In this document: positions 2,993 through 60,861 of the stretch, piece after piece
Position numbering within the stretch: position 1 is the first letter of the stretch
Layout of the letters: the number at the start of each line of letters is the position of its first letter
Notes under the pieces: generated by a model
What the model was told of the DNA's origin: nothing
What the model saw: the letters and a program-made list of their open reading frames with translations, nothing else
The model's database searches: none
Position numbers and translations under genes: made by a program
Assembly: GCA_017962105.1 (NCBI GenBank)
Contig: JAGCVY010000052.1
Location: 983-64,982 of the forward strand
Length of the DNA stretch: 64,000 nucleotides
Source: Lachnospiraceae bacterium
Lineage (GTDB): Bacteria > Bacillota > Clostridia > Lachnospirales > Lachnospiraceae
Direction: 5' to 3'

Positions 2993-3082
2993 AGAAAAAA
3001 CGATTGCTCCTTTAGCTGAATTCTTCCCCTGACCAAACTGTCCCTCACAATACCATAATGTTATACCAAAAGCGGTTTTTTT

Positions 3083-3120: not shown

Positions 3121-3148
3121 TGCAGCCGTATCATTTTTCGATTTGGTA

Positions 3149-4528: not shown

Positions 4529-4550
4529 GGTTTTCTCTCCTTTTCCTCTT

Positions 4551-5900: not shown

Positions 5901-5903
5901 ATG

Positions 5904-7172
5904 TCACCCCTCATAGGTTCCCAGGAAGATCGGGATCCCCTGATAATTGATGGTGTAGATAAACGGGCGGTCCAGACGGACCGTGATCTCGTCCGGATAG
6001 TCCATCGGAGCCGCGGCCTTTTCCATCATGATCGTAGCTGCCGCCGCTTTTGTTCCCTCTTCGTCGACCTCCACCTTTGTCTTGTGCAGCACTTCCCCGA
6101 GAACGATCACCCGGTCGTCGGAAATGCTGTCAAGTCCGGTGCTGAACGGTGCGGTGAATCCCATCTCCATGAGAATATCCGCCATATTGTCACAAAAGTA
6201 TTCGCTTGTGAATTCCGGCAGCTGGAGGGTGATCTTCGCCTCATGACGCTTGCCGTAACCGTTCATCCCGTACAGATACTGCGACGACATCTGCGCAAGA
6301 AGCTCTTCCACCGTCACCCCTTCCCGCGGCTGATAGACGCTGAAGGAAAAGTATCCGTCCTTGTAGGACTTTCTTACCTGAGTACACCATTCATCCTGAT
6401 AGTAGCTTCCGCTGTAGGTTTCCGTCATAAGGTCCACAGTCCCCGTCTTCGTTCCCGAAGCATCGTAAAATGCGGCACCCTTCTCGGTCTTCTCCTTATC
6501 AAACGGATCTGCCCACTTTTGGTCAAACAAAACGGCGTTGACCAGAACGAGGTTCCCGGGAATCCCTCCGTCATTCAACATTTTCTCGATCATGCCGTCG
6601 GTGTTATTCATGATCCACAGATTGATATCGTCAACCGTCGACTGATCGAACGGAGCCTTGAACACGCCGGCCCGGTATGCGTTCGCGCACATCTGCAGAT
6701 ACTCTTTTTTCACCGAATCGGCAAAACTGTCACGGAGCCAGACGGAATCCGCGATCCGAAGGCCTTCGTTCCCGTTCACCTCCGACAGTAACGTGGCGAG
6801 ATAACGGTTCATCACGTCCCTGGAAAACCCGAATTTCTCCTCCATCTGGGCAAGGGTTTCCCCGGAGGCTCCATTCTCCGCCATACCCAGGGCAAACATC
6901 ACCGAGAGCGGCGACACAGCCATGGTCTTGCCTGCCGATTTCCGGGTGAGCTGAAACATTTCGACCGCGAAATCCAGATACTTCAACTCGAAGGTTTCGT
7001 TGATCTCCAGCGGTTCCAGCCCCGTACCCGACGACGAGGATCCCGGCTCAATGAGCGCCTCGGCCCCGATGTATTGTTCGCTGCCACATCCGGCGAACGC
7101 GGTTACAAGCACCGCGGCAAGCAACAGGGCGAGTCCCTTTTTCATCCTCTGTCTGATTTTTGTTCCGTGCAT
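5904..7172 (-). CDS. Serpin, lipoprotein, paralog 3
   Basis: The track ORF is 5904..7238. I prefer ATG 7172 (MHGTKIRQRMKKGLALLLAAVLVTAFAGCGS) because GGAGGAGG lies about 6 nt upstream. Lipobox is FAGC. The hinge plus RCL reads EEGTKAAAATIMMEKAAAPMDYPDEITVRLDRPFIYTI. Confidence 0.85.
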   Translation of the reverse strand: MHGTKIRQRMKKGLALLLAAVLVTAFAGCGSEQYIGAEALIEPGSSSSGTGLEPLEINETFELKYLDFAVEMFQLTRKSAGKTMAVSPLSVMFALGMAENGASGETLAQMEEKFGFSRDVMNRYLATLLSEVNGNEGLRIADSVWLRDSFADSVKKEYLQMCANAYRAGVFKAPFDQSTVDDINLWIMNNTDGMIEKMLNDGGIPGNLVLVNAVLFDQKWADPFDKEKTEKGAAFYDASGTKTGTVDLMTETYSGSYYQDEWCTQVRKSYKDGYFSFSVYQPREGVTVEELLAQMSSQYLYGMNGYGKRHEAKITLQLPEFTSEYFCDNMADILMEMGFTAPFSTGLDSISDDRVIVLGEVLHKTKVEVDEEGTKAAAATIMMEKAAAPMDYPDEITVRLDRPFIYTINYQGIPIFLGTYEG

Positions 7173-7353
7173 AAAGCACCTCCTCCCACAACCCGTCGGT
7201 CTCTCTCCGACCATTGTATACCCAAGATACGACCGCACACAAGGTTTTTATGGGATGGCACACACTGCAATTGTGTAAAGTTTGTGAAAAAAGAATTGTG
7301 CCCGTTTCCCTTTACTTTACGAGGAATCTGTGCTATCATACGTTTCGTTGTCA

Positions 7354-7426
7354 GCGCTTGTAGCTCAGTGGATAGAGTAGTGGCTTCCGAAGCCAATGGT
7401 CGGGGGTTCGAATCCCTTCAGGCGCA
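7354..7426 (+). tRNA. tRNA-Arg (anticodon CCG)
   Basis: Hand-folded 73 nt cloverleaf. Acceptor is GCGCTTG/CAGGCGC (one G-U pair), D arm GCTC-AGTGGATA-GAGT, anticodon loop TTCCGAA and T loop TTCGAAT. CCA is not encoded. Confidence 0.85.
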
Positions 7427-7433
7427 CACACAG

Positions 7434-7467
7434 GAAGGCCCGCGGATTCCGCAGGCCTTCTTTTTTT
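7434..7467 (+). terminator. Intrinsic terminator after tRNA-Arg
   Basis: GAAGGCCCGC ... GCAGGCCTTC stem-loop followed by TTTTTTT (7461-7467). Confidence 0.75.
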
Positions 7468-7506
7468 GTCCCGGCGGGATTGACCCGCCGCCTCTGTTTT
7501 CACCAT

Positions 7507-8451
7507 TCAGGCGCCCATCTGCAGCTGATGGCGGAACTCCTCCGGCATCAGATTCTCAAACTCCTCGTAGCTGTACACCTCATCCGAGAGAACCTCCTGC
7601 GGCGGGACCTGCGTCTCGTTGATCTGACGCACCATCGCCCGCAGCCTGTCCCGGTCTGCCATCTGCGATACCGGAACGAGGATGACTTCGTGGATGCTGG
7701 AGGGCAGGATCCAGAAGTCCTCTCCGATCCGTTCCCGGAAGCCGTCAAGGAACGGAATGTCCAACAGTGCCGAGGCCCCCATATGGCTCTGCCGGTTGGT
7801 CAGGACATACATGGGAAACTCCTCCGGTTCGGCCTCCGTCAGTTCCTCCTCCGAAAGCCCGGCAAATCTCCCTCCGTTCTCCCTGACGATCTCCAGAATG
7901 ACATCCTCGATATTCCGGAGTACCGGCGGCACCTCCCTCGCGGAATTCTCCACCGCCAGCTGTGTCAGCTCCTCCGTGGTAACCCCCCAGAACTCCGCCT
8001 GCTCATCCGTCACCCGGACCGACCCCAGGCGCCGGTCGTCCGTGTTCACGACCCACTGGAATCCCACCGCCAGGTCGCCGATCTCGATGTGCGGCATGTG
8101 CATCAACTCCTCCTCGTTCATCCCCCGGTTGATGACGCGGAACAAAATCTTGTCGCGGATGTCGGAAAATTCAAAGCTCGGCGCCTCCTTCCAGGGCTCC
8201 CGGTTCTTCTGATAAATCTGCGTCACCTCCTCCGCGATATGGGCGATGGTCCGCCCCTCCGCGTACTGCTCATAGTACGGATTGAGGTACACTGTCGGCG
8301 CGATCGCGGAATCCGGTCTGCGGATCAGCATTCCGTCCATTGTGATATTGTTGTTCTTGCGAACGGTTTTCATCGTAATCTCGTATTCTTCCCCTAACAA
8401 ATTCCGCGCATGCTCGCACACACATACACAAAATTCCTGAAAATTTTTCAT
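7507..8451 (-). CDS. DUF5688-like protein
   Basis: The track ORF starts at GTG 8460; I prefer ATG 8451 (MKNFQEF...). The N-terminus MKNFQEFCVCVCEHARNLLGEEYEITMKTVRKNNNITMDGMLIRRPDSAIAPTVYLNPYYEQY matches my recollection of DUF5688 proteins from Clostridia. The family call is from memory only. Confidence 0.6.
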   Translation of the reverse strand: MKNFQEFCVCVCEHARNLLGEEYEITMKTVRKNNNITMDGMLIRRPDSAIAPTVYLNPYYEQYAEGRTIAHIAEEVTQIYQKNREPWKEAPSFEFSDIRDKILFRVINRGMNEEELMHMPHIEIGDLAVGFQWVVNTDDRRLGSVRVTDEQAEFWGVTTEELTQLAVENSAREVPPVLRNIEDVILEIVRENGGRFAGLSEEELTEAEPEEFPMYVLTNRQSHMGASALLDIPFLDGFRERIGEDFWILPSSIHEVILVPVSQMADRDRLRAMVRQINETQVPPQEVLSDEVYSYEEFENLMPEEFRHQLQMGA

Positions 8452-8572
8452 AGCAAACACACACCCGGATAGTTTCCCCGGGTCCTTTCCCCAATATAGT
8501 CATAATCGTTGTACGCCTCTGCGTACCGTATCAATCTCACGCGTGGATCTGTCCGGGCGAACGCCCCGAAAT

Positions 8573-48241: not shown

Positions 48242-49444
48242 TCAGATATCGTATCCCTTTAACAGCTTTGCACGGCTCGGATGGCGGAGCTTCCGAAGCG
48301 CCTTCGCCTCAATCTGGCGGATACGCTCACGGGTTACGTTGAACTCCTTGCCGACCTCCTCGAGAGTGCGCTGACGGCCGTCGATCAGACCGAAACGGAG
48401 TTTGAGGACTCTGCGCTCACGCTCCGTGAGGGTGTTGAGAAGCTTCTCAATTTGCTCCTGAAGCATCATGTAGGAGGTTGCCTCCTCCGGTCCCGGAGTC
48501 TGCTCGTCCTTGATGAAGTCGCCCAGATGGCTGTCATCCTCCTCGCCGATCGGCGTATCCATGGAAATCGGATCCGCACTGATCTTGAGAACCTCACGAA
48601 CCTTCTCGACAGGCATGTTCAGAGCCGCTGCCAGCTCATTTTCCGTAGGTTCACGGCCGAGCTCCTGCAGGAGCGTACGGCTCACGCGGTAGGTCTTGTT
48701 GATAACCTCGGACATATGCACCGGGATACGGATGGTACGGGACTGATCCGCGATGGAACGCGTGATCGCCTGACGGATCCACCAGGTTGCATAGGTCGAA
48801 AACTTGTATCCCTTTGTGTAATCAAACTTGTCGACGGCCTTGATCAGACCGAGGTTTCCTTCCTGAATGAGATCGAGGAAGGAAAGGCCGCGTCCGACAT
48901 AGCGCTTGGCGATGCTGACAACCAGACGGAGGTTCGCCTCTGTAAGCTTTCTCTTAGCCTCCTTGTCGCCGTCGAGGATCTTCGTTGCAAGCTCGATCTC
49001 CTCGTCGACGCTCAAAAGAGCGAATCCGCCGATCTCGCGAAGATACTGCTTGACCGGGTCATCCGACATCGCGTTGGCAATGCTGTTCAATTCATCGTTG
49101 TCCGCCGGGAGGACTTCCTCGTCCTCATCGATCATGATATCGTCGTCAAATCCTCCGATGTCATCCATCGTTCCGATTCCGGCCTCCAGTTTGCGGAGAG
49201 CCTGATCGTTCGGGTCCTCGTCCGCGATATCCCGGTCGGCGTCCGGGTCCTCATCCAATTTCAAAAGCACGCTGATCCCGCGTCCTTCCAGATAATCATA
49301 CACTCGCTCCAGCTGATCGTCCGTCTTGCAGAAATCCTTCATGACATCGCCGATATACTCGGCCTCGATACTGCTGCCATGATCATACCCGTACTGGGTC
49401 AATTCCTCCAAACGGCTCTCAAATGTCGCAATCTGTTCACTCAT
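48242..49444 (-). CDS. sigA: Primary RNA polymerase sigma factor (sigma-70/SigA)
   Basis: 400 aa with an acidic region 1. Other motifs are [49 protein letters not shown] and region 4 [28 protein letters not shown]. Confidence 0.95.
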
Positions 49445-49469
49445 ATAGGCACTGTTCCTCCGGAAAATA

Positions 49470-49910
49470 TTACTGCGTTTCCCTGCCGGTTTCTGCGGCA
49501 GACTCCAATCTCTTCATGGTGCGGAAGCAATACTCCATGATATCGCTTCGCTTGACGATGCCGATGAAGATATCGTTGTCGTCGGTGACCGGCACAAAGT
49601 TTTGCGTCATCGCAACGCGGAGAAGGCTCTCCACCTCTGCGTTTACATTGACCGCGGTGTTATGCAGACGTCGGGGTATCCTCGTGATCGGGATCCGCTC
49701 CGCGTCGTGCATATTCATGTCCGCCACGTTCTTGATCCCCCAGAGAAGGTCTCCCTCCGTGATGGTTCCGACATAACGACCGTTGCGATCCAGCATCGGG
49801 ATTGCCGAATACCGGTGGAACTCCATTTTTTCCAAAACCTGACGAAGGCTGTATTCGTTTGTAACGTACGCAACCTCGCTCTTCGGCGTCAAGAAAAACA
49901 AGATGTTCAA
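49470..49910 (-). CDS. CBS-pair domain protein
   Basis: I prefer TTG 49910 ([16 protein letters not shown]...), which lies 8 nt after AAAGGTGG. The predicted promoter at 49955-49984 would exclude the track start (50045) and ATG 49964. CBS-like motifs include [20 protein letters not shown] and [20 protein letters not shown]. Confidence 0.7.
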
Positions 49911-49954
49911 ATCACTAACCACCTTTCCTGCTGACTTTAGGCGCACACCGCGTA

Positions 49955-49984
49955 AGTATAGCATTTTCCTCTTGCCTGTGTCAA
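49955..49984 (-). promoter_or_regulatory. Sigma-A-type promoter upstream of the CBS-sigA pair
   Basis: The minus strand reads TTGACA (49984-49979), an 18-nt spacer, then TATACT (49960-49955). Confidence 0.55.
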
Positions 49985-50005
49985 CCACAAAAACCAACCA
50001 AAATA

Positions 50006-52798
50006 TTAATACCAATCGTCGTCTTCGTTGTAATACTGATACCATTCCTGATCGGACAGATACCGGTAGCCGAAGGCGTAATTTTCCGTCACGTTGTGTC
50101 CGCTCTCGTCCAGAACCTCGGCGAAAACGCCGCGGTTGCCGACCGTACCGATCTGCATGGCAAAGCCGTGGTCCCAGCTCTCATCATTCTCCAGGAACAC
50201 GTGAAGCTCGTGGCCGTTCACCAAGGAACCGGAGATGATCCTCCATCGAAGGGAGTTTGTATCGTGGATGGAATCAGCATACAGAAGAAGGCTGAGGTTC
50301 CGCTGTGTGATGTTGAGTTCCGGGCAGGATACGGCCAGAACGTATTCGTAGGAAACATCCGCGCCGGAGCTGTCAACCACTCTGACATCAACTTCATCAA
50401 ACGTATACAGTCCGGCGTCCACATACTGGGAATCCGGTCCGAGAACATAGGGATCTCCTTCGATCCGGTCACCGTCGCGAAGGAGGCCGGACAGAAGATG
50501 CCAATCCATCGTAATCTCACCGGGAACATTGCCGTCGTACTCCTTACTCACGGAGTCAAAGGCGATATTCAGGATGCGATACTCGTTAGGGTCAAAATCA
50601 ATGATATCGCCGCCGGAAATCGTACCGCTGGAAAGCGATCCGTCAGGTCCGCCGGTAACCTCCACCGGCACCCAGCCCGTACCGTCGATATACACTTCCA
50701 CCCACGCATGTCCGCAGTTGGTGGTAACCGTTGTCCAGCGTCCCGCCTGACCGGACTGAGTGAATCCCAGAACAAATCTTGCGGGGATCCCGTATGCGCG
50801 GTACATCATGGTTGCGGCGCTGGCATAATGCTGACAGATTCCTCTTTTGCTCACTGTCAGGAAATACAGCACCATGTCCTCCCCTTCCGGGAAATCGTCA
50901 AAGGCAAGGTCATACGATGCCGCACCCTGGATATAGCGGGCAATCTGCTCGATCATATCGTATACCGAGCCGCCCTCATAGATGCCGTTGTCCTCTCCGA
51001 GACTGCGCAGTGCCGAGGAAAGTTCCGGATCAATCTCAAGATAGGTCTCATAGACGAACCGGCTGTATTCTCTCTCCCTCTCGTCATAGCAGACAGGAAG
51101 GACCATCCAACCGCTGTAGGGATTCACATAGGTCTCACAGGTGTAATCCCGCAGGCCGGTATCCGAGATGATCGGATCTCTGGTCATATAATACGGATAC
51201 ACCTTGTGGTCAAGCTTCAGATCGCGGATGCTCACGCTGTCCCGAAGCCCGTCGGATTCCAGAAGGGCTTCTCCGGTGAGATAGTTGTTCCAGGGCTGGT
51301 ACGCATCCTCTCCTTCGGTCTTATACCAGGTACTGCCGTCATATACGCCGTACGTCCATTCGCGGAAATAATATCTGCGGTTGCTCAATCCAAAGAAGGA
51401 AAATACCTTCGCGGGATTAAAGCTGGTCATGCCGAAGTCAAAGCTGCCATCCATCTCTCTTGCACCGGATCGGGAGATGGAGAACTGGCCCTCCTGAGCA
51501 GATTCGATATCTCCTTCTTCGCCGCCGCTTCCGCCCATGCCGCCCATGCCGCCACCGCCGCCTCCGCCCTTGGGAGCGTACACACGAAGCGTTCCTTTTT
51601 TCTCGGTGACGTCATAGTATTCCGAAACATCCCCGTAGGTATCGCTGATGATCCGGATCTCGTCGAAATAGTTGGGGCTCTTTCCGACTTCGGTCTGCGA
51701 ACCGATGCAGTCGGTGTCAAGATGATCTCCCGGAGCAAGACCTTCCCCTCCCACAGAAAACTGAGCATTGGTGAGCGGTGTTCCGTCATACTCCTTGCTG
51801 GCGGAACCGCTGGTGAGAGTTATCTTCCGGTTTCTGACCGTCAGCTCTCCCTCTTCGTAGGAGATCACATACTGGTAAGTAACGTCTTTGCCGTCTTCAT
51901 CAAAGATACACTGATCTTTTTGGATCACTTCATTGATCGCATAATGACTGTCGACCGCTACCTTTCTGGTGTGGAATTCCGCATGATGACCGTTCTTCAG
52001 TTTACCGGAGATATCGCAATGATCGTATTCCTCCGGCTCCTTCGGAACCCCGTCGTACACATAGGTCTTGCTTCCGGCGCGAACCGTTAAATAAACTCGC
52101 TCGTCCGTGATCTTCCCGGTTGGATTCGGGATTGTGTAGCAGTCCGACGCATCGGTGCCGTCCTTGTGAACGATAAAATCCGATGCATTAACGCCCAGCC
52201 GGTACTGTCTGTCATCCTTGTTCTTCCCGTAGGAATAGATGACCTCGCAGTTCCCGAGACGGTCTCCGTAGACAAGCCCTTCCACAGAGTAATCCTTCTC
52301 CGTAACCGTAACGCTCTCGGGATCTCCCATCACGGAGATGTTCGAGAGACGGATCGTCAGCTTCTTCGGCTTGATCTGGAACCGGACACTGTCGCTATCC
52401 CGCTCGACTCCGAGGAACGAGACGGAATGCGCGCGCACTTCGTAGGTTCCCGGTCTGATTGGAACGGTCTCGCTCCAATCCGAATACTCTTCTTTTTGGG
52501 ATTTCTTTTTCTTCTTCCCGTCTTCATAGTCCTCATAGTCATCATCGTCCTTATCGGAGACGGTGATCACCTCACGGTACTCATAGACGGTGGAACCGAT
52601 GGCGGAAATTCCCGACGAAGGCTTCGGCAGTTCGCCGTAGGTCACGGACTCGCAGGTCAGATCGCGATACCGGAACCCCACGCCGAAGCAGAACAAAAAC
52701 GCGGGAATCAGCACGGCGAGTGCGATCAGGCAGCCCTTCTTCACTCTCCGCAGGATACGCGCCAAACGTTCCATCGATTTTTCGTATTCCTCGTACAT
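50006..52798 (-). CDS. Membrane-anchored multi-repeat protein with transglutaminase-like (papain-fold) core
   Basis: ATG 52798 (MYEEYEKSMERLARILRRVKKG, then TM CLIALAVLIPAFLFCFGVGF) has an AGGAGG RBS. It carries YDG-type repeats (KTYVYDGVP, SKEYDGTPL, SKEYDGNVP) and a Gly-rich linker (KGGGGGGGMGGMGGSGGEEG). The TGase core reads KRGICQHYASAATMMYRAYGIPARFVLGF ... CGHAWVEVYIDGTGWVPVEVT. Confidence 0.85.
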   Translation of the reverse strand: MYEEYEKSMERLARILRRVKKGCLIALAVLIPAFLFCFGVGFRYRDLTCESVTYGELPKPSSGISAIGSTVYEYREVITVSDKDDDDYEDYEDGKKKKKSQKEEYSDWSETVPIRPGTYEVRAHSVSFLGVERDSDSVRFQIKPKKLTIRLSNISVMGDPESVTVTEKDYSVEGLVYGDRLGNCEVIYSYGKNKDDRQYRLGVNASDFIVHKDGTDASDCYTIPNPTGKITDERVYLTVRAGSKTYVYDGVPKEPEEYDHCDISGKLKNGHHAEFHTRKVAVDSHYAINEVIQKDQCIFDEDGKDVTYQYVISYEEGELTVRNRKITLTSGSASKEYDGTPLTNAQFSVGGEGLAPGDHLDTDCIGSQTEVGKSPNYFDEIRIISDTYGDVSEYYDVTEKKGTLRVYAPKGGGGGGGMGGMGGSGGEEGDIESAQEGQFSISRSGAREMDGSFDFGMTSFNPAKVFSFFGLSNRRYYFREWTYGVYDGSTWYKTEGEDAYQPWNNYLTGEALLESDGLRDSVSIRDLKLDHKVYPYYMTRDPIISDTGLRDYTCETYVNPYSGWMVLPVCYDEREREYSRFVYETYLEIDPELSSALRSLGEDNGIYEGGSVYDMIEQIARYIQGAASYDLAFDDFPEGEDMVLYFLTVSKRGICQHYASAATMMYRAYGIPARFVLGFTQSGQAGRWTTVTTNCGHAWVEVYIDGTGWVPVEVTGGPDGSLSSGTISGGDIIDFDPNEYRILNIAFDSVSKEYDGNVPGEITMDWHLLSGLLRDGDRIEGDPYVLGPDSQYVDAGLYTFDEVDVRVVDSSGADVSYEYVLAVSCPELNITQRNLSLLLYADSIHDTNSLRWRIISGSLVNGHELHVFLENDESWDHGFAMQIGTVGNRGVFAEVLDESGHNVTENYAFGYRYLSDQEWYQYYNEDDDWY

Positions 52799-52855
52799 TA
52801 CGTACCTCCTGTAGTTCTTCCCCACTCCACTCAATTACATTACACGACGCTTTGT

Positions 52856-53989
52856 TTATTCCGTAAGGGTCAGTTTTCCGTGCTGGCTGATCAGCCGGTA
52901 ACAATCGGAGACATCCCCGAGGATCGGATTCCAAACGGAATAGGAGTAAACCTGATTCTCATAGAATCCGGGCTGCCAGAACGAATGCAGCTGCTGCGTT
53001 GTCACGATCTTTAACTGCTCTCCGTCCAGAAGCTCCCCGTCCACCAGATGCCAGTCGCCGGGGATAGACGTATCGTAATACGGCCGGGTGACATCATCCG
53101 TTATGACCACAAGCGATCTCGGCGTGATCGTCAGCGTCCCCGTTGCATACTCGATCTCGTAGAACTCCGTGACATCCATACCGCGGGCATCGGTGATCTG
53201 TGCCTGCACGACGTTGTTGCAGATACCCACCACGGTGATGCTTCCCACCGCCTTCATCTGGATCTTATGGTCGGCTTGTACGCTTCCCTCCCGGATGCTG
53301 TAATCGGGATTGGACAGCGGTACGCCGTCATACTCCTTGCTGGCGGAACCGGATTCGATCACAAGCCTGCCGTAGCTGATGATGATCTCACCCAGATCGT
53401 AGTTGACCTCGTAATTCTCCGTCACATCCTCACCGTCGCTGTTGGTGATCCGGACGCGGAAGGAGTTCTTATATTTTCCCGCATCCGTGGGCTCCGCGAA
53501 ATCATACCCTTCCCAGGTTTCCCCGCTGGCAAGCCAGCCCGAGGCCAGCATAGCATAGGGGAAGGGATGTGCGTTCCCGTCATACACGGCGCGGTTGGAC
53601 TCGCTCCGGAAGGTAAGCTTGCGGCGAAACACCTCAAGCTTTCCGAAGTGCGTCTCAATGTCGTACTGATCCGTCACATCGGCACCCGAGGAGATGTCGC
53701 GGATCACGATCCTGGCGTAATTCTCGCTCGAGCCCACGTCGGTCTGCTCGCCGAGGACCTCCACCTCCAGCTCGTGCTCGTCCGACAGCTTTCCGGACAC
53801 CAGGCTCCACTTCTTGCTGCGGAGTACTCTTCCGTCAAATGTTTTCGACGACGAGGCGGTCTGGATCACCAGCGGAGTCTTCCGGTACCGGAAGCTTCCG
53901 GAGGCAATGAGTACGGACATCAGGATCAGGATTCCCGCCAGCACGACGCCGCCGATTCCGAATAAATAAACTGATAAATTCTTCTTCAT
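52856..53989 (-). CDS. Membrane-anchored YDG/MBG-like repeat protein
   Basis: I prefer ATG 53989 (MKKNLSVYLFGIGGVVLAGILILMSVLIASG) with AAGGTG 9 nt upstream; the track start GTG 54001 lies inside that RBS. About 4 modules follow the pattern K.(F/Y)DG ... G.L ... VG ... DVT..Y.(I/V)....G.L.(V/I), similar to those in the transglutaminase protein. Confidence 0.75.
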   Translation of the reverse strand: MKKNLSVYLFGIGGVVLAGILILMSVLIASGSFRYRKTPLVIQTASSSKTFDGRVLRSKKWSLVSGKLSDEHELEVEVLGEQTDVGSSENYARIVIRDISSGADVTDQYDIETHFGKLEVFRRKLTFRSESNRAVYDGNAHPFPYAMLASGWLASGETWEGYDFAEPTDAGKYKNSFRVRITNSDGEDVTENYEVNYDLGEIIISYGRLVIESGSASKEYDGVPLSNPDYSIREGSVQADHKIQMKAVGSITVVGICNNVVQAQITDARGMDVTEFYEIEYATGTLTITPRSLVVITDDVTRPYYDTSIPGDWHLVDGELLDGEQLKIVTTQQLHSFWQPGFYENQVYSYSVWNPILGDVSDCYRLISQHGKLTLTE

Positions 53990-54004
53990 CTTTTCATACA
54001 CCTT

Positions 54005-55378
54005 CTACGACACGGATTGACACAGATAGTGCAGGTAGCTGCGGCACAACGGCATAGCGTCCGGTCCGAACAGCTCGGACAGCTTCAGGGTGAGTCCTTT
54101 TCCTGCCTTCGCGATGACTACGGGGTTCTGGCCTTCGAGTTTCCGAAGAACCTTTTTCACCAGGAAATCATCGAGAGCATCCTCCTCAGTACCTCCGCAG
54201 GCGATGTACACGGAGACGTACTCCTCCATCTGCTTGCGGATCCGGTTACCGTAGGTGATATGGTAGTTGTCCATGAGATACCGGTCGATCTCTCCGACCT
54301 TGCGGCGGTTTCTGGAAGTCATCGTGTAGGACTTCTTCGCCCAGTCGACGGTGGTGCAGAATCCGGTGTACGACAGGCGCATACCGGCTGCCGACCTCGC
54401 GTAGAAGGGCTTTGCCTTCCGGTCAAGGTTCATGACCATCGCACGGTCATACACCTTATCGGAGATGGCAAATGTCGAATCGTCGTTGTTGGCCGTGCCG
54501 ATGAACCAGACGTTGACGGGGATCCGGAACCGTCCGTTCTCAAACAACTCGGGATCCTTCTCCCAACTGTCCGATGTCATCTCAAGGCACCGGTCCGCGG
54601 GATTCAGCTCCATCAGCGAGAGGAAATCCGCGAAGAAATACTCGACGCGCGCGATGTTCATCTCATCGAGAACGATGATGCAGATATCATCGGAATACCG
54701 CGCCTCGTACAGTCTCTTTAACAGGGCACTCTCGTTGAACTGTTTCGTGAACTCGTTGAAGTATCCGATGACATCCGCGCGCTCCTTCCACATGGGCTGC
54801 ACGGAGATGACCGACGACGGATTCCCGAGAAATGCCCCGAACGCGGTGGCTAACGATGTCTTACCCGTACCGGAGAGACCCTGCATGATCATCAGATGGG
54901 ATACGGAAAATCCTGCGATAAACCGGCGGATGTCGTCCACCTCATAGTACAGTTTCAATTGGGAAGCGGCGTATGCGCGGAAATCCTCGCAGATCTTCAG
55001 CATGGGAACCGCCCCTACCCTCTCGGGTGTGACAGCTGCAGCCGCATCCTGGTCGATGGCCGCCAGCGCACGGAAACGCACACCGTCGGATCCGGTCTTT
55101 TTCTTCCTGCGCTTGCTTCCGATCCAAAGAAAGCCTCTTCCGTGTTTCACGATTACAAGCGTTATGGCGATGATGATAACCGGCAGCAGGATCGCAAGGA
55201 TCACGGTGAAGAACACCGTCTCGCTGCGGAGGAGCATTCCCTCCTGGAAAATGTTCGCCAGATCTCCGTCATCGCTTCCGCAGATTCCGATGAGGATCAG
55301 CACGACACACACGAGTGCGACGGTGCCGAACACCAGAAACCGCCAATACCAGGCGGATTCGTTATGCTTTTCTTCCAT
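54005..55378 (-). CDS. Membrane-anchored McrB-like (AAA_5-type) NTPase, paralog 2
   Basis: 457 aa. It has two N-terminal TM helices (WRFLVFGTVALVCVVLILIGI; VFFTVILAILLPVIIIAITLVIV) followed by KRRKKKTG. Walker A is GLSGTGKTS and Walker B IIVLDEMNIARVEYFFADFLSLME. FIGTANNDDSTFAISDKVYDRA resembles the McrB MNxxDRS region. Confidence 0.75.
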   Translation of the reverse strand: MEEKHNESAWYWRFLVFGTVALVCVVLILIGICGSDDGDLANIFQEGMLLRSETVFFTVILAILLPVIIIAITLVIVKHGRGFLWIGSKRRKKKTGSDGVRFRALAAIDQDAAAAVTPERVGAVPMLKICEDFRAYAASQLKLYYEVDDIRRFIAGFSVSHLMIMQGLSGTGKTSLATAFGAFLGNPSSVISVQPMWKERADVIGYFNEFTKQFNESALLKRLYEARYSDDICIIVLDEMNIARVEYFFADFLSLMELNPADRCLEMTSDSWEKDPELFENGRFRIPVNVWFIGTANNDDSTFAISDKVYDRAMVMNLDRKAKPFYARSAAGMRLSYTGFCTTVDWAKKSYTMTSRNRRKVGEIDRYLMDNYHITYGNRIRKQMEEYVSVYIACGGTEEDALDDFLVKKVLRKLEGQNPVVIAKAGKGLTLKLSELFGPDAMPLCRSYLHYLCQSVS

Positions 55379-55381
55379 GTC

Positions 55382-56917
55382 TCAGCTTTTCCTCCTCCAC
55401 AGAAGTCTCTTGCGGATTTTCTTTCTGGCAACTCCCCAGTTGCGCTCAAAGTAGCGATCGAACGCATCCCGCTCCCGCTCCAGTTCGAGAAACTGTTCCC
55501 TCTCCGACATATCCTCGAGAGGTTTCTTCACGCCGAACTGTTCCAAAAGGGCGGTTATCCGCGCCGTGAGAAGCGCTGTCAGTTCCTTCTCCTTGTCGAG
55601 TTCCTCGGTGAGCGATTGGATCCGCCCGCGCAGCTCTTCCGCCGCGGCTTCGGATACCTTCCGGTCCTCCGCCATCTGCGAGCGGGCTGCTGCCGCATCC
55701 TCGCGGCTCCGCTCGGCATTTTCCTGCATCCGGAGGGCCCGGTTCTCCGCGTTGGCGGCACCGAGACGATACCGTTCCGTCTCGTCCTTAAGCTCCTCGT
55801 TTTTCTTCTCGGTCTGTTCCCTGCGGTCCACCTCGGCGAGTATCAGTTCGCGGAACTCGTCCGGGGTAACTTCCCCGGTCTCCGCGCGCTTCAGAATGCT
55901 CTGAAGCCGTACCTCCCGAAGTCTTGCCTGCTCCTGTGCAAGCCGCTCCTCTTCCTCGTCGTAACGGGCCTTCAATTCCCCTGAGAGGTTGCGGCCGTAT
56001 TTGGCGTTCAGGAAGCTCAGGAACATTACGGTCTCGACAATCTCCTTCTCCATCTCCGGAGGGAAGGGTGCCAGGGAATTCTCGTGGCGTACCACGGAAA
56101 ATCCGTCTTTCTGGTAGTTGCTCAGGAAGTCGTAGATCGCCACAACCTCCTTGAAGTGCGTATCCATCCGAAGTACGTTTGTCCTGGTGATGGGCGGCGT
56201 GACCATCGGCGCAAGCGCGACGCTCTTCATCAGCGGCATATCCAAAAGTACCGCGATCGTGCCTGCAATGTTCTCAAGCCGGGCAAGTTTGCCGGCATTG
56301 TGTTTTTCAATCTCCGAGAGACCGTCGGTGCCGTCGCTGTAGTTTACAGAGACGGAAATCGGACCTCCCTCCGTCCGGATCTCCTTTTTGAACGACGTCT
56401 CGGAGCAGGACTCCTTCCACGCCTGTGCGATCTTAAAATACCGGTAATCCACGAAATCCCGCGTATAGCAGAGCACCATGTACAGAACCCGGTTCTCATA
56501 CACTGCGAAATTGCTCTCGTTCTCATACACCTTGAGACGGTCGGGGATCAGATCCTCGCCCTCGTCCGGAACGTGGGTGATCATCTCGCTGTGGCGCGAG
56601 AGATGCTCAACGGAAGACCGCGAGACCTTGCGCACGCGCTCGATGGGCGTGACATTGCCCTCGGTCTTGATGAACTGACGATCCTCCCGGATCGCGGCCT
56701 CCAGATGCGGAAGCGCCGCCTCGATGTGCTCGATCCAGTCCTCCTCGATGGTGACGTCGAAATATACCGTCGAGAGTTTCTCGGTCTCCGTGCCGCTGTG
56801 TGAATACAGCTCGCGGAGCTTCCGTTCCTCCTCGCCGCCGGTCAGCGTATTTCCGTGCAGCTGCTCGGCAAACCGTCTGGCCGCCCGATAATACCGGTCC
56901 ATTACTCCCTGACTCAT
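55382..56917 (-). CDS. McrC/DUF2357-like N-terminal domain fused to a long coiled coil; no nuclease motif seen
   Basis: 511 aa with a GGAGGA RBS. PIERVRKVSRSSVEHLSRHSEMI ... VYENESNFAVYENRVLYMVLCYTRDFV ... TRTNVLRMDTHFKEVVAIYDFL resembles McrC-partner (DUF2357-type) proteins. Roughly residues 330-480 are Glu/Arg/Ala/Lys-rich heptad-like sequence. The stop lies 3 nt before the next start. Confidence 0.55.
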   Translation of the reverse strand: MSQGVMDRYYRAARRFAEQLHGNTLTGGEEERKLRELYSHSGTETEKLSTVYFDVTIEEDWIEHIEAALPHLEAAIREDRQFIKTEGNVTPIERVRKVSRSSVEHLSRHSEMITHVPDEGEDLIPDRLKVYENESNFAVYENRVLYMVLCYTRDFVDYRYFKIAQAWKESCSETSFKKEIRTEGGPISVSVNYSDGTDGLSEIEKHNAGKLARLENIAGTIAVLLDMPLMKSVALAPMVTPPITRTNVLRMDTHFKEVVAIYDFLSNYQKDGFSVVRHENSLAPFPPEMEKEIVETVMFLSFLNAKYGRNLSGELKARYDEEEERLAQEQARLREVRLQSILKRAETGEVTPDEFRELILAEVDRREQTEKKNEELKDETERYRLGAANAENRALRMQENAERSREDAAAARSQMAEDRKVSEAAAEELRGRIQSLTEELDKEKELTALLTARITALLEQFGVKKPLEDMSEREQFLELERERDAFDRYFERNWGVARKKIRKRLLWRRKS

Positions 56918-56963
56918 GTCCTATCCTCCGAATTCTGCAAATCCCCGACAGTGACGGAATCCA

Positions 56964-58328
56964 TCACGACGAATTTCTGCGCAGCCGGTCCAGACTGTCG
57001 CTGCACAACGGCATATTGGCAAGACCGAAGGTGGTCTCAAAGACGTTCTCAAGCGCATCCATGGAGTAGCGGATCATCACCGGACTCAGGCCGTCGAGCT
57101 TACGCAAAACCTTCTTGGCAAGGATATCGTCCACAGCCTCGGCTTCGGTCCCGCCGCAGGCGAGATACACCGGGATATACTCCTCCATCTGGCGGCGGAT
57201 GCGGTTACCGTAGGTGACGCGGTAACGATCCGTCAGGAACTCGTCAATCTTACGAACCTTCTGAATGGCATCCTCGGACATCTGATACGATGCCTTTGCC
57301 TCCGCCACAAGCTTCGAAAAATGGGTGAACGAAATGCGGTCCCCCTCCGTGGACTCCGGCTCGAACAGATCCGCCTTGCGGTCAAGGTTCATGACCATCG
57401 CACGGTCGTACACCTTGTCGGAGATGGCGAAGGTGGAGTCGTCGTTGTTGGCCGTACCGATGAACCACACATTTTCCGGAATACGGAGCATACCGCGCTC
57501 GAGAAGCTTCGGGTCATCCTCCCAGGTGTCCGAGACAACCTCGAGATACCGGTTGGCAGGACTCAACTCCATCTGGGAGAGGAAGTCCGCAAAATAATAT
57601 TCCACACGCGCGATGTTCATCTCATCGAGAACGATCACGTAAATCTCATCGGTGTAGCGCGCCTCGTACAGCTTCTTGAGCAGCGTGCCCTCGCTGAAGC
57701 GCTTCGTAAATTCGTTGAAGTAGCCGATGATGTCGGAACGCTCCTTCCACATCGGCTGTACGGAGATAACGGTGGACGAGTTCTGCAGATAGTTGCCGAA
57801 CGCCGTCGCCATGGAAGTCTTACCGGTACCGGAGAGACCCTGCATTACCATCAGGTGGGAAACTCCGAGTCCCGCGATGAACTTGCGGACATCCTCCTCG
57901 CTGTAGAACAGGCCGAGTTTGCACGCCGCATAATTACGGAAATTGCGGCAGATCAAAGGCAGCGTGATCGCGTCGTCATACTTCGGCGGAACGTAGCGCA
58001 AAGCTGCGCGGTCGTACTGGATCAGCGTGTGGAAGCGCGACGTGATCTCATCGTCGTCCACCAGCTGAAGCAATCCGCCCGTCGTCTGCTCCTCCGTCGG
58101 CTGCACAGGCGCCGCGCCCTCGGCTTCTCCGTTCTCTCCGGTTTCCGTCTTAGCGGCGGGTGCGGCCTTCGGCTTCTGCTCCGTCGTCAGCTTCATCACG
58201 GCAAGGATCATCACCGCGATGCTTGCAAACAGGATGACGAAGTAAATCAACAGCGCCACGCGGGAGGAAAGTCCTGCCCACAGCGCCTCAAACAGGGTTC
58301 CGAACAATACGGTATCCAGTAATTTCAT
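56964..58328 (-). CDS. Membrane-anchored McrB-like (AAA_5-type) NTPase, paralog 1
   Basis: 454 aa with an AAGGAG RBS. The N-terminus is hydrophobic (VALLIYFVILFASIAVMILAV), followed by a Pro/Ala/Glu/Thr linker. Walker A is GLSGTGKTS and Walker B VIVLDEMNIARVEYYFADFLSQME. FIGTANNDDSTFAISDKVYDRA is identical to paralog 2. Confidence 0.75.
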   Translation of the reverse strand: MKLLDTVLFGTLFEALWAGLSSRVALLIYFVILFASIAVMILAVMKLTTEQKPKAAPAAKTETGENGEAEGAAPVQPTEEQTTGGLLQLVDDDEITSRFHTLIQYDRAALRYVPPKYDDAITLPLICRNFRNYAACKLGLFYSEEDVRKFIAGLGVSHLMVMQGLSGTGKTSMATAFGNYLQNSSTVISVQPMWKERSDIIGYFNEFTKRFSEGTLLKKLYEARYTDEIYVIVLDEMNIARVEYYFADFLSQMELSPANRYLEVVSDTWEDDPKLLERGMLRIPENVWFIGTANNDDSTFAISDKVYDRAMVMNLDRKADLFEPESTEGDRISFTHFSKLVAEAKASYQMSEDAIQKVRKIDEFLTDRYRVTYGNRIRRQMEEYIPVYLACGGTEAEAVDDILAKKVLRKLDGLSPVMIRYSMDALENVFETTFGLANMPLCSDSLDRLRRNSS

Positions 58329-58356
58329 GGTTTCTGATCTCCTTGGATTTCATACT

Positions 58357-59094
58357 TCACTGTGTATTCGATGTATCGCCGATCGGCTTGTGAACCCGCA
58401 GGTATCGAAGGCTCATCGGCAGTTCCCGTTCCCCGAACACCTCGCGGAACACTCGCTCTGCGATCTTCATGCTCTCTCCGCCGCCATGTTGGAAAATCGA
58501 CGGCAGCAGAACGGTGTAGATGGCCCGGTCCAGCGCTTCCCCGCTGCCGGTTCCCGTGGCGAGCAGCGTCGAGGAGTACATCTCCATCCCGCGGATGGTC
58601 CGGTTTACCGTCCCCGGGACCCAGTTGGGCGCGCTCTCCTTAAGGATCGCATCAACCGCTCTCCAATCGCTCTCGGGAAGGAAGAAGTCATCCTCCGCCT
58701 CCCGCAGGATCCCGCGGAAGGTTTCGGCTCCGACACCGCAGTGGGGCTGGCCGTATTTTACGCCGGACCACGCAGCTTCCACCTCCGTGCGGAGGTAATC
58801 CGGCGTGTTGTCATCCGCGATGCGGAACACCGCATAAGGCGACATCAGATTTTCCGCCGATTCCCCGAAAAATGCATTGAGAAGCATCGACATCGTTCCC
58901 ATCAGCGCGGGTTCCGTCCCCGGTAGCCCGTCGAGACGCACATTGGCGTACGTCGCATACGCCGCGAGTATCCTTCCCGCGTCTTGTTCCCCGATTTCCA
59001 CCCCGCACACATGCAGGTACTTCCGGATCCGATCCGCCAGCATCCCCATCGTCTCGCCCGGAATCTCATCCGCTGACCGTGGTATTGTGTTCAT
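58357..59094 (-). CDS. Hypothetical cytoplasmic protein, first gene of the AAA/transglutaminase locus
   Basis: The track ORF extends to 59355. I prefer ATG 59094 ([19 protein letters not shown]...) with GAAAGGGG 6 nt upstream. The product is 245 aa with no TM segment and no motif I recognise. Confidence 0.6.
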
Positions 59095-59108
59095 AGAACC
59101 CCTTTCCC

Positions 59109-59151
59109 GAAATACGACAAAAAGACCGCAGGACAAGCGATTGCGGTCTTT
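59109..59151 (-). promoter_or_regulatory. Terminator-like hairpin in the 5' leader of the locus (possible attenuator)
   Basis: The minus strand reads AAAGACCGCA-ATCGCTTGTCC-TGCGGTCTTT followed by TTGTCGTATTT, ending about 15 nt before the RBS of the 58357..59094 gene. No minus-strand gene lies upstream for it to terminate. Confidence 0.45.
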
Positions 59152-59228
59152 GAGCAGAGTATGGCTCACGTGTATGTCGCATACGAATTCATTGTAATTT
59201 CCCCCATGTGGATTCATTGTATCAGATA

Positions 59229-59256
59229 CATAGGAAAAAAGCAAGATTTTCCGATG
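59229..59256 (+). repeat. Solo copy of the GCATCGGAA/TTCCGATGC hairpin repeat
   Basis: CATAGGAAA-AAAGCAAGAT-TTTCCGATG is followed by TCTCTTTCCGTTTTG. It has one arm mismatch and a shorter loop than the units at 47836-48140. Confidence 0.6.
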
Positions 59257-59343
59257 TCTCTTTCCGTTTTGTCCGCGCCGGTTCCGCCGCCCCGATCTCC
59301 GCGAAAACTCCTCATCGCGCTCCGCGAAAACCGCTACTCTCTC

Positions 59344-59372
59344 TTGACAAAACATACCCCCCGCGGTAAGAT
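59344..59372 (+). promoter_or_regulatory. Sigma-A-type promoter of gltX
   Basis: TTGACA (59344-59349), a 17-nt spacer, then TAAGAT (59367-59372), 32 nt upstream of ATG 59404. Confidence 0.6.
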
Positions 59373-59403
59373 ATCGGCAACATCAAAAAGGAGGGCATTT
59401 TCC

Positions 59404-60861
59404 ATGAAAATCAGAACCCGTTTCGCCCCCAGTCCCACCGGACGCATGCACGTCGGAAATCTGCGCACCGCGCTGTATGAGTTTCTGACCGCCAAGCACG
59501 AGGGCGGTGATTTCATTTTACGTATTGAGGACACCGATCAGGAGCGCTTTGTGGAAGGCGCTGTCGATATTATCTACCGGACGATGGAAAAAACCGGCCT
59601 TGTTCACGACGAAGGCCCGGATAAGGATAAAGGTTTCGGCCCCTATGTTCAGAGCGAGCGCGTCAAGAGCGGCCTCTACATGGAGTACGCCAAGAAGCTT
59701 GTAGAGAAAGGCGAGGCTTACTACTGTTTCTGCACCAAGGAGCGTCTCGAGTCCCTCAAGGGCGTTGTGGACAGCGAGGGCAAGGAGATCACAAAGTACG
59801 ACAAGCACTGTCTCTCCCTCTCCAGGGAGGAGGTCGAGGCCAACCTGGCTGCCGGCATGCCCTTTGTCATCCGGCAGAACATTCCCACCGAGGGAACCAC
59901 CACATTTTCCGACGCTCTGTACGGCGACATCACCGTAAAGAACGATGAGCTTGACGACATGATCCTCATCAAGAGCGACGGATTCCCGACCTACAACTTC
60001 GCCAACGTCATCGACGACCACCTCATGGGCATCACCCACGTGGTCCGCGGCAACGAGTACCTTTCCTCGACGCCGAAGTACACCCGCCTCTATCAGGCCT
60101 TCGGCTGGGATGAGCCCGTGTACATCCACTGCCCGCTGATCACCGACGAGAACCACCAGAAGCTTTCGAAGCGCTGCGGCCACTCCTCCTTCGAGGATCT
60201 GTTGGAGCAGGGTTTCGTCTCCGAGGCAATCGTCAACTTCATCGCGCTTCTCGGATGGAGCCCGGTGGGCAACGAGGAAATCTTCTCCCTTGAGGAGCTG
60301 ATCGAGCAGTTCGACTACCATCACATCAGCAAGTCTCCCGCTGTCTTCGATATGACGAAGCTTCGCTGGATGAACGGCGAGTACATCAAGAAGATGGACA
60401 ACGAGCGCTTCTATGAGATGGCGATCCCTTACATCCGCGAGGTTGTCACCAAGGACTACGACCTTCGCAAGATTGCCGATCTGGTGAAGACCCGAATTGA
60501 GGTGTTCCCGGACATCGCCGAGAAAATCGACTTCTTCGAGGATCTGCCGGACTATGACATTGAGATGTACACCCACAAGAAGATGAAGACCAACAGCGAG
60601 ATTTCCCTGGCGGTCCTTAAAGATCTCCTGCCCCGCTTCGAGGCGCTTGACGACTATTCCATCGCCGGCATCGAGAAGGTCTGCATGGACTACGTTGCCG
60701 AGAAGGAAGTCAAGAACGGCATTTGCCTCTGGCCTCTCCGCACGGCCGTCTCCGGCAAGCAGATGACCCCCGGCGGCGCTTACGAGATCATGGAGATCCT
60801 CGGCAAGGAAGAAAGCCTCCGCCGTATCCGCGTCGGCATCGCCAAGCTGGAGATCGCGTAA
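59404..60861 (+). CDS. gltX: Glutamate--tRNA ligase
   Basis: ATG 59404 has a GGAGGG RBS; the track start at 59161 is an upstream extension. Motifs are [25 protein letters not shown] (HIGH-type) and KLSKRCG (KMSKS-type). Confidence 0.95.

Follow-up and report, generated by a model that had tools for sequence, protein, structure and literature searches.

A conserved Clostridia gene set linking McrB-family NTPases and a DUF2357 protein to two predicted surface proteins, one of them transglutaminase-like

A 64,000-nucleotide stretch of DNA from an uncultured Lachnospiraceae metagenome-assembled genome (MAG), hereafter the window, carries six adjacent genes, P1 to P6, that assemble known module types into a new combination. 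The combination is real and conserved, and occurs in hundreds of Clostridia species. It joins two McrB-family AAA_5 nucleoside triphosphatases (NTPases) and a DUF2357 protein to two predicted surface proteins, one of which contains a transglutaminase core. The reading that we favour, with moderate confidence, is that of a chromosomal, vertically inherited envelope system in which an NTPase derived from McrBC and tethered to the membrane governs an extracytoplasmic transglutaminase/protease module; it would be analogous to the MoxR-DUF58-TgpA systems and not a member of them.

Composition, conservation and genomic context

The listing of open reading frames (ORFs) of the window reproduces the six co-directional, minus-strand genes at 50006-59094 that an initial annotation had described, with intergenic gaps of 28, 46, 3, 15 and 57 nucleotides (nt) from P1 to P6. 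A terminator scan of the region agrees that none of these gaps holds a terminator-like site, and the 11 such sites across the region are no excess over shuffled sequence (8.3 +/- 2.7). The internal ATG starts of P5 and P6 coincide with the starts of their orthologs in ortholog alignments. P3 is annotated as 'hypothetical protein' (MBP5489935.1) and P4 as 'AAA family ATPase' (MBP5489934.1). The genes, with the sources of their assignments in brackets, are as follows.

58357..59094, minus strand: P1, 245 amino acids (aa), soluble, probably a degenerate, P-loop-less paralog of the McrB-like NTPases, accessory (family hidden Markov model, hhalign, BLASTP)
56964..58328, minus strand: P2, 454 aa, McrB-family AAA_5 NTPase paralog 1 with a single predicted N-terminal transmembrane (TM) segment (Pfam, PADLOC, PDB)
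55382..56917, minus strand: P3, 511 aa, DUF2357 protein (McrC N-terminal type) with a C-terminal coiled coil and no nuclease (Pfam, AlphaFold2 (AF2) model)
54005..55378, minus strand: P4, 457 aa, McrB-family AAA_5 NTPase paralog 2 with a predicted two-helix membrane hairpin (Pfam, PADLOC)
52856..53989, minus strand: P5, 377 aa, predicted N-in/C-out, four modules of ~85 aa each with a YDG motif (hydropathy, sequence reading, BLAST repeats)
50006..52798, minus strand: P6, 930 aa, predicted N-in/C-out, YDG-motif modules, a poly-Gly linker, a TgpA-like transglutaminase core and a further YDG module

Relatives of P3 number more than 136 and are called 'hypothetical' wherever annotated. A pattern scan with one genome per species found 408 stretches that encode a P3 relative, 80 of which were read for taxonomy and identity. 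The carriers among these 80 are labelled Lachnospiraceae/Lachnoclostridium, Oscillospiraceae, Christensenella/Christensenellaceae and Borkfalkiaceae, together with MAGs labelled Clostridia or Eubacteriales and two Bacilli, Izemoplasmataceae (locus L060) and Anaeroplasma (L071). A P3 query of the Christensenella type returned 1763 clusters at 90% identity, and in a full-library search with the P3 N-terminal domain, clustered at 50% identity, at least 268 clusters lay at E <= 1e-30 and 969 at E <= 1e-10.

The core of five genes (AAA, DUF2357, AAA, YDG-repeat, transglutaminase) is strictly linked, and the co-occurrence elsewhere that the initial annotation had proposed as a check is observed. In tblastn searches with domain queries, the upstream AAA gene was found in 46/46 loci long enough to judge, the downstream AAA gene in 42/42, the repeat protein in 31/31 and a transglutaminase core within 10 kb in 28/31. 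The gene tables of six distant relatives share the order AAA_5, P3-like, AAA_5, repeat protein, Transglut_core. The whole rpoD/CBS ... gltX/pcrA setting of the window is kept in four related genomes, and one side of it in three more. The flank proteins in those genomes are 83-95% identical to those of the window (CBS and PcrA excepted), and P5 and P6 are 39-54% identical. Flanks elsewhere differ and are mostly housekeeping, with ribosomal, purine and similar genes. Among the listed loci, identity to the window is 49-79% in Lachnospiraceae/Lachnoclostridium and 30-40% in other Clostridia and Bacilli; it declines along with the taxonomic labels, a pattern better explained by vertical inheritance than by horizontal transfer.

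A phage collection gave no match to the system. The plasmid database gave three distant cyanobacterial matches to the P3 N-terminal domain, all of them DUF2357 proteins, and no close match; phage or plasmid cargo was therefore rejected as an origin of the genes. Two of the plasmid relatives were inspected, L090 (Pseudanabaena plasmid NZ_AP017561.1, 190054-200665) and L091 (Nostoc plasmid AP018224.1). Each encodes a DUF2357 protein of ~730 aa directly downstream of a PDC-M26A-like AAA_5 protein of ~800 aa, and the neighbours in L090 include helicase-related and toxin-antitoxin genes. Both loci look like CoCoNuT-type defence loci. The presence of the AAA_5-DUF2357 adjacency on cyanobacterial plasmids as well indicates that the pair is an inherited unit.

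These relatives bear on an alternative in which the genes form an anti-phage or conflict system: the surface repeats would sense or block a phage or a competitor effector, the NTPase would act as switch or amplifier, and the transglutaminase/protease would be the effector, which cross-links or cleaves invader proteins or the cell's own receptors. The NTPases do have their ancestry in McrBC restriction systems, their strongest profile match is the PADLOC model PDC-M26A (7e-44 for P2, 3e-42 for P4), the plasmid relatives lie in defence-like surroundings, and the ectodomain proteins diverge far faster than the neighbouring genes. One distant relative, L087, also has the core beside a type I restriction-modification system, a PDDEXK_9/AAA-ATPase_like gene and a barnase/barstar pair (1-8503), the sole defence-like neighbourhood among the six gene tables inspected. 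Against this, no nuclease, HEPN or toxin domain was found in the six genes (Pfam, NCBIfam, PADLOC) or in the conserved neighbours of the six relatives, although nuclease-less McrC homologs are reported by Bell et al. (PMC11090510) always to adjoin another nuclease. PDC-M26A is matched by the NTPase core only, with no other PADLOC match. The mostly housekeeping neighbourhoods, the stable position among relatives, the absence from phages, the distance of the plasmid matches and the tracking of identity with taxonomy likewise fit this alternative poorly, and we consider it unlikely.

The membrane-anchored NTPases and the DUF2357 protein

The placement of both NTPases in the McrB/AAA_5 type, and not in MoxR/AAA_3, was already made in the initial annotation and is upheld by several comparisons. 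Both proteins score above the Pfam AAA_5 gathering cut-off of 22 bits (P2, 24.5 bits; P4, 26.4 bits), no DUF58 partner is encoded with them, and the sole PDB sequence relatives of P2 are E. coli McrB (4e-5). The alignment of P2 with E. coli McrB, at an identity of only ~21%, spans the Walker A, Walker B and N-x-x-D regions and sets GLSGTGKTS, VLDEMN and GTANNDDS in register with GPPGVGKT, IIDEIN and GLMNTADRS of McrB. The P2 motifs GLSGTGKTS, VLDEMNIARVEY and FIGTANNDDST are kept in orthologs, and the Walker A, Walker B and signature motifs are kept in both paralogs across 33 loci. The NCBIfam McrB equivalog PRK11331 scores 23.9 and 19 bits against a cut-off of 637, so that P2 and P4 are relatives within the McrB family and not orthologs. 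The PDC-M26A model (724 positions) is matched partially, in two or three stretches overall, with the best at ~313-435. The features of the two proteins are listed below.

58191..58259, minus strand: predicted TM anchor of P2, ~aa 24-46, followed by a low-complexity linker at ~aa 47-100 (hydropathy peak 2.98)
57393..57911, minus strand: P2 NTPase core, aa 140-312, with Walker A, Walker B and N-N-D-D signature (alignment with E. coli McrB and cyanobacterial PDC-M26A-like proteins)
55148..55339, minus strand: predicted TM hairpin of P4, aa 14-32 and 59-77, with a basic stretch after the second TM (hydropathy and flanking charge)
54440..54958, minus strand: P4 NTPase core, aa 141-313 (Pfam, alignments)

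The topology of P2, P4, P5 and P6 was read from hydropathy plus flanking charge, which supports the single TM of P2 and the two-TM hairpin of P4 as initially proposed. This one-TM versus two-TM pattern is kept in most loci. In most other loci the upstream paralog has a single N-terminal hydrophobic peak or two such peaks close together, and downstream paralogs show at least two TM peaks in 29/32 loci and none in the other three, probably because the first-Met start was chosen for those three. Linkers of ~45-65 residues, of low complexity in P2, separate the anchors from the NTPase cores. No nucleic-acid-binding specificity domain was matched at the N-termini of P2 and P4 in Pfam, where TM segments and linkers are found instead, and neither protein contains a coiled coil. 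P2 and P4 are 63% identical over 342 aa. Judged by their sequences, they are two paralogs with intact catalytic motifs that differ mainly in the membrane anchor.

The relation between the paralogs is closer still in five independent loci, where ~1.1 kb of NTPase-module DNA is 97.7-100% identical between the two genes and the 5' anchor parts are unrelated. The pairs are located as follows.

L003: 8660-9982 and 11877-13265
L060: 8645-9979 and 11948-13330
L063: 8529-10001 and 11898-13403
L053: 8537-9910 and 11695-13116
L068: 8639-9976 and 11786-13222

The NTPase-module DNA thus reads as a direct repeat around the DUF2357 gene, homogenised by gene conversion; in the lineage of the window the two genes have drifted apart to the 63% protein identity given above. 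Near-identical modules with unrelated anchors indicate that the two genes supply one motor on two anchors and that the NTPase modules can be exchanged between them. Clustering of the AAA paralogs follows lineage and not upstream or downstream position, which is attributed to gene conversion between the paralogs; an ancient split into upstream and downstream clades was rejected on this ground. These loci provide a natural experiment in the concerted evolution of paralogs whose near-identical NTPase modules are carried on different anchors.

The nearest NTPase relatives found outside the system are the PDC-M26A-like AAA_5 proteins of the cyanobacterial plasmids, which are 35-38% identical to P2. 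They carry NQDE or NTDE where the window proteins carry N-N-D-D, and the ANNDD signature can be read either as NxD then D or as NxxD. The signature and these relatives together suggest that the window NTPases belong with the 'NxD' McrB branch of Bell et al. (PMC11090510), or at least lie closer to it than to canonical McrB of the E. coli type.

P3 was initially described as an McrC/DUF2357-related protein in which a coiled coil replaces the nuclease, and this description is confirmed. Pfam DUF2357 is matched at 2e-5 (24.4 bits against a cut-off of 23.3), and by 17/24 diverse members of the P3 family, with a best value of 6.1e-9; DUF2357 is equated with the McrC N-terminal domain by Bell et al. 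(PMC11090510). The AF2 model (predicted local distance difference test, pLDDT, 82.7) has an alpha/beta N-terminal domain and is helical from residue 287 to the end. No PD-(D/E)xK nuclease was found in P3 with Pfam, NCBIfam or PADLOC, and the model has only helices at the place of the nuclease. Four segments can be distinguished.

56300..56740, minus strand: DUF2357-matched segment, aa 60-206 (Pfam)
56516..56671, minus strand: highly conserved aa 83-134, a candidate ring-insertion 'finger' (conserved columns; role by analogy with McrC)
55538..55984, minus strand: long helices, aa 312-460, coiled coil of variable length across the family (AF2 helices 312-346 and 352-460)
55394..55501, minus strand: conserved basic C-terminal helix F..ELE.E..AF...W..AKK.IRK..LW (conserved columns; AF2 helix 473-508)

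The columns of the candidate finger are invariant or near-invariant, yet the segment has a pLDDT of 48-59 in the monomer model, as expected for an element that folds on binding. The basic C-terminal helix is a candidate for a membrane- or partner-binding role.

The surface proteins, P1 and the ends of the operon

P5 and P6 are predicted to be type-II membrane proteins that expose immunoglobulin-like YDG-motif repeats, with a Cys-His-Glu transglutaminase/cysteine-protease core in addition in P6. Their single TMs agree with the N-in/C-out orientation given in the initial annotation, as does the match of the P6 core to Pfam Transglut_core (2.7e-23) with its identification as a transglutaminase. 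Their features are as follows.

53906..53962, minus strand: predicted signal-anchor TM of P5, aa 14-32 of the 381-aa ORF (hydropathy)
52673..52798, minus strand: predicted cytoplasmic tail of P6, MYEEYEK.MERLARILRRVKK, and TM (52673-52729) (ortholog comparison, hydropathy)
51548..51568, minus strand: poly-Gly run GGGGGGG of P6 inside a Gly/Ser-rich linker (sequence reading)
50654..50965, minus strand: transglutaminase-like core of P6, aa 624-727 of the 942-aa ORF, with Cys in GICQHYA, His in GHAWVEVY and Glu in VEVT

The tail motif of P6 is kept across Lachnospiraceae and still recognisable in the distant locus L001, and the tail is a candidate contact (docking) site. The best solved relative of the P6 core is 6g49, 'Protein-glutamine gamma-glutamyltransferase' (7.8e-9), which we take to be P. 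aeruginosa TgpA. In an alignment of 36 cores, every sequence has the Cys and the His (36/36), and the third residue of the triad is Glu in 34/36 and Asp in 2/36, the latter only in L034 and in one of the two copies of L068. P5 contains F/YDG at aa 55, 140 and 224 and YYD at 308 (numbering of the 381-aa ORF), and its internal repeats are visible by BLAST. The description of these repeats as YDG/MBG-like modules stands for the motifs in both proteins; similarity to family profiles is weak (YDG, 0.045; AgI_II_C2, 7.5e-6, just below cut-off; Lar_0958, 2.6e-4).

In some loci two ORFs have a transglutaminase core, or the core precedes the repeat protein. Such variant surface genes were located at L003 13243-14772 and 14456-16312, and at L068 13226-16330 and 16339-21648. 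They indicate that the surface genes differ among loci in number and order, and that the NTPase/DUF2357 block is constant.

The weak likeness of the repeats to the Lar_0958 mucus-adhesin and antigen I/II modules raises the alternative of a regulated adhesin or colonisation module, in which P5 and P6 would be adhesins that the transglutaminase fixes covalently to host mucus, plant fibre or other cells, with the NTPase controlling their display or clustering. The fast-evolving ectodomains fit such a role, as do the sample sources, which are rumen, gut or faecal where record titles state one. Anaeroplasma and Izemoplasmataceae are wall-less lineages; if the labels of the two Bacilli carriers are right, the surface enzyme cannot act on peptidoglycan in every carrier, which also favours this alternative. 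The Izemoplasmataceae locus holds the full upstream block, and the Anaeroplasma locus is a 3.5-kb contig. The repeat similarities lie at or under curated cut-offs, however, and neither P5 nor P6 contains an LPXTG motif, so that a sortase signal is lacking. A need for three McrB paralogs and an McrC-like activator is left unexplained, and the near-universal retention of the whole set suggests a cell-autonomous role instead. An adhesin module seems to us distinctly improbable.

The first gene was initially described as a 245-aa protein of unknown family. The length is confirmed, and the family assignment is revised, as P1 is probably a degenerate third paralog of the NTPases. It has no match in Pfam, NCBIfam or PADLOC. 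A hidden Markov model of its family matches the AAA paralogs and, in distant loci, the C-termini of ORFs just upstream of the first AAA gene; the C-terminal half of P1 aligns with the AAA C-terminal domain at an hhalign probability of 92% (E = 6e-7), and BLASTP relates P1 to P2 at 1e-4. In a manual pairing, for which there are weak model matches only, a degenerate stretch appears in P1 at the place of Walker A (GLSGTGKTSMA), and the sensor-1 region was also read as degenerate in longer P1 relatives. Foldseek searches of the PDB with AF2 models, a check suggested in the initial annotation, gave no significant match for P1 (pLDDT 88) or P3; for P1 nothing fell under E = 0.3, and an MCM AAA+ match at E = 1.7 counts for nothing.

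A P1-type gene lies upstream in 31/43 loci, about three quarters. Lachnospiraceae homologs are 334-407 aa long with an N-terminal TM, which P1 of the window lacks, and tblastn upstream of P1 found no remnant of this TM region. The longest ORF of P1 (332 aa, 58357-59355, minus strand) runs over the leader, and the version of the gene caller has 295 aa (P0121); neither extension is like the N-termini of the homologs. Six P1-type forms of ~1,100 aa, labelled Christensenella or unclassified Clostridia/Oscillospiraceae, have two TMs ahead of the pseudo-NTPase domain (6/6), and the 4/4 of these that were scanned have a GH3-like N-terminal domain (Glyco_hydro_3_C, 9e-15 to 4e-30) with an Fn3-like domain. 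The GH3-fused ORFs, from Christensenella, Gallimonas and unclassified Clostridia MAGs, are listed below.

L053: 5181-8570, plus strand
L061: 5377-8703, plus strand
L078: 4478-8158, plus strand
L068: 5140-8622, plus strand

No signal peptide was seen in the GH3-fused protein of L053, the one sequence read for it, and the GH3-like domain of these fusions is predicted to be cytoplasmic. The variable N-terminal domains of the P1-type pseudo-NTPases, this signal-less domain included, are what an outside-in sensor might be expected to show. In such a sensor, ligand binding by the ectodomains would be relayed to the NTPase ring, acting as a timer or switch on a cytoplasmic target, and some lineages would integrate a GH3-like sugar-binding domain; anchors that are tethers and not rigid rods would suit it as well. 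Profile scans of the conserved set, however, revealed no DNA-binding, kinase, cyclase or other output domain, and the conserved extracellular catalytic triad points to an enzymatic output outside the cell. We regard this alternative as very improbable.

Two features precede the operon.

59216..59244, minus strand: promoter-like site, TTGCTT, a 17-nt spacer and TACAAT, with TG one base before the -10 (extended -10) (manual reading, candidate)
59117..59150, minus strand: leader hairpin, a 9-bp stem (AAGACCGCA / UGCGGUCUU) and an 11-nt loop, followed by a U-run (sequence scan)

The promoter-like site is missing from a consensus scan because its -35 hexamer matches at only 3/6 positions. The terminator-like hairpin reported initially in the leader is present, with its 9-bp stem (59122-59150) and a U-run, ~25 nt ahead of the P1 start codon; the claim is weakened in that the fold of the 131-nt leader is no better than that of shuffled sequences (z = -0.91). 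Rfam gave zero matches over 49000-60000 at E <= 1. With neither the fold nor Rfam in favour, a riboswitch or attenuator in the leader is unsupported.

Housekeeping genes flank the operon: on one side are a ParC/GyrA-like gene, rpoD and a gene with a CBS domain; on the other are gltX and a gene for a PcrA/UvrD-like helicase. The longest ORF of the CBS-domain gene (49470-50045, minus strand) overlaps the end of P6, and just past the P6 stop, at 49955-49984 on the minus strand, is a strong promoter-like site (TTGACA, 18 nt, TATACT, with TG). The overlap and this site together indicate that the CBS-domain gene probably begins at a Met inside the ORF and is transcribed from a promoter of its own.

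Comparison with known systems and proposed function

The composition of the locus was initially said to match no described system, and we arrive at the same result. No description of this gene composition was found in searches of 8 million full texts, and the partial PDC-M26A match is the only one in PADLOC. No MoxR or DUF58 partner was found, P3 is related to DUF2357 and the set co-occurs in other genomes.

The system shares with McrBC the AAA_5 family of P2 and P4, aligned through Walker A, Walker B (DE.N.A) and the N-x-x-D sensor, and the DUF2357 family of P3. It differs in that membrane anchors take the place of the DNA-binding N-terminal domain, P3 lacks the PD-(D/E)xK nuclease, apparently two active-type paralogs and one degenerate paralog stand in place of a single McrB, and the genes are always linked to those of extracytoplasmic proteins. 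Membership of canonical McrBC is therefore rejected, as there is no DNA-binding domain, no nuclease and no orthology.

Within the NxD branch, McrC homologs with coiled coils and without nuclease have been described (PMC11090510). In CoCoNuT systems the GTPase carries coiled coils, and a HEPN or another nuclease is always encoded next to it (Bell et al., eLife 2024, PMC11090510). CoCoPALM is described as comprising N-terminal GTPase fusions that contain TMs (FtsB-like), a McrC homolog with a coiled coil, a link to the assembly of surface structures and a pilus protein of the signal-peptidase family (PMC11090510). The window proteins may resemble this group in their signature, since N-N-D-D can be read as 'NxD then D/E' and the cyanobacterial relatives carry N-x-D-E, and they resemble CoCoPALM in having TM-anchored GTPase-family proteins and a coiled coil in P3. 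Unlike in CoCoNuT, there is no coiled coil in P2 and P4 and no adjacent HEPN or other nuclease, and membership is rejected on both grounds. As regards CoCoPALM, no FtsB-like profile is matched in Pfam, and the system differs from it in that no signal-peptidase family occurs among the six proteins or the neighbours of the six relatives. CoCoPALM, which is only named in PMC11090510 and was therefore compared through name-level remarks, is the closest described idea, and the window system may be identical with it. Neither that paper nor those of its supplements that were examined mention a transglutaminase, and these supplements have no Lachnospiraceae entries.

The two genes upstream of TgpA are presumably those of MoxR and DUF58. 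TgpA itself is an essential protein that shows transglutaminase activity in vitro, and its gene is co-transcribed with two genes that precede it (PMC3507681). The window system resembles MoxR-DUF58-TgpA and YeaC-YeaD-YebA in that genes for cytoplasmic proteins lie upstream of one for a transglutaminase-like protein that is anchored in the membrane and extracytoplasmic, and in that the solved domain closest to the P6 core is the periplasmic domain 6g49. The differences are several. The ATPase is of the AAA_5/McrB type, the adaptor is DUF2357 with a coiled coil and not DUF58, and the NTPases carry membrane anchors of their own. P6 combines a single TM with YDG-motif repeats in place of a polytopic N-terminal domain, with Glu replacing the Asp of the triad, and a second, repeat-only membrane protein (P5) is always present. 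A MoxR/TgpA-type operon is rejected, since no AAA_3 or DUF58 match was obtained in the six proteins at E <= 0.1 (Pfam). The parallel with the logic of MoxR-DUF58-TgpA/YebA (AAA+ ATPase, adaptor, membrane transglutaminase) would thus be one of analogy, drawn from an unrelated AAA+ branch and adaptor.

With PADLOC PDC-M26 the system has in common the strong match of P2 and P4 to PDC-M26A; it differs in that the model is matched in part and no other component matches any PADLOC model. No paper describing PDC-M26 was found in the full-text literature search. Since this partial match is the only one, membership of a known defence system is rejected.

In the envelope system that we favour, an McrBC-derived module would have lost its DNA-binding and nuclease parts and become tethered to the cytoplasmic membrane. 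The NTPase paralogs would form a membrane-tethered ring, which P3 would plug with its conserved stretch, stimulating NTP hydrolysis as McrC does for McrB, and the coiled coil of P3 might dimerise or bridge rings. Contacts of the complex with P5 and P6 would be made by the TM segments of these two proteins and by the cytoplasmic tail conserved in P6. Cytoplasmic NTP hydrolysis could then gate how an extracytoplasmic enzyme, which cross-links or cleaves proteins on surface substrates, is assembled, activated or turned over.

Several observations weigh against this reading. The anchor linkers, ~45-65 residues long and of low complexity in P2, favour tethering over force transmission through the anchors; the trans-membrane machine put forward in the initial annotation is accordingly supported as to tethering and less so as to rigid mechanical coupling, and the idea itself stays conjectural. 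The Foldseek search with the P3 model had a best E of 0.35 and returned no McrC, hhalign of the P3 family with E. coli McrC gave a probability of 0.1, and a PDB profile search with the whole P3 alignment yielded coiled-coil noise only. With no match to a solved McrC or to that of E. coli, the 'plug' role of P3 rests on a single Pfam family relationship. Glu in place of the canonical Asp in nearly all aligned cores means that transglutaminase activity could differ. The nearest NTPase relatives fall in a candidate defence model, PDC-M26A, and the much faster evolution of P5 and P6 than of the flank genes is also what a conflict role would predict. Finally, no cultured carrier was found; all 80 listed loci come from uncultured organisms, nearly all of them MAGs, and every relative with a name is a MAG entry.

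A bolder version, which we put forward tentatively and hold to be possible rather than probable, is that of a so far unrecognised trans-envelope machine of Bacillota. It would consist of a domesticated McrB-type ring and McrC-type activator, with interchangeable anchors and a pseudo-NTPase with lineage-specific sensor domains, in which NTP hydrolysis controls the cross-linking or processing of surface proteins. If true, the McrBC architecture would for the first time have a role outside both defence and nucleic acids, and there would be a handle on the role of TgpA-like transglutaminases.

McrBC-type motors are known as nucleic-acid-directed restriction machines. In the gene set described here, the motor and the activator appear to be retained, and the DNA-binding and nuclease parts to have been swapped for membrane anchors and a coiled coil. 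If the module does control a surface enzyme, the McrBC architecture would have a wider functional range than thought, and the system would join MoxR-DUF58-TgpA as another, independent example in which AAA+ ATPase, adaptor and membrane transglutaminase act together, making the general logic testable. A widespread gene set of abundant commensals that had gone unannotated, as 'hypothetical protein' and 'AAA family ATPase', would then become a defined target for study.

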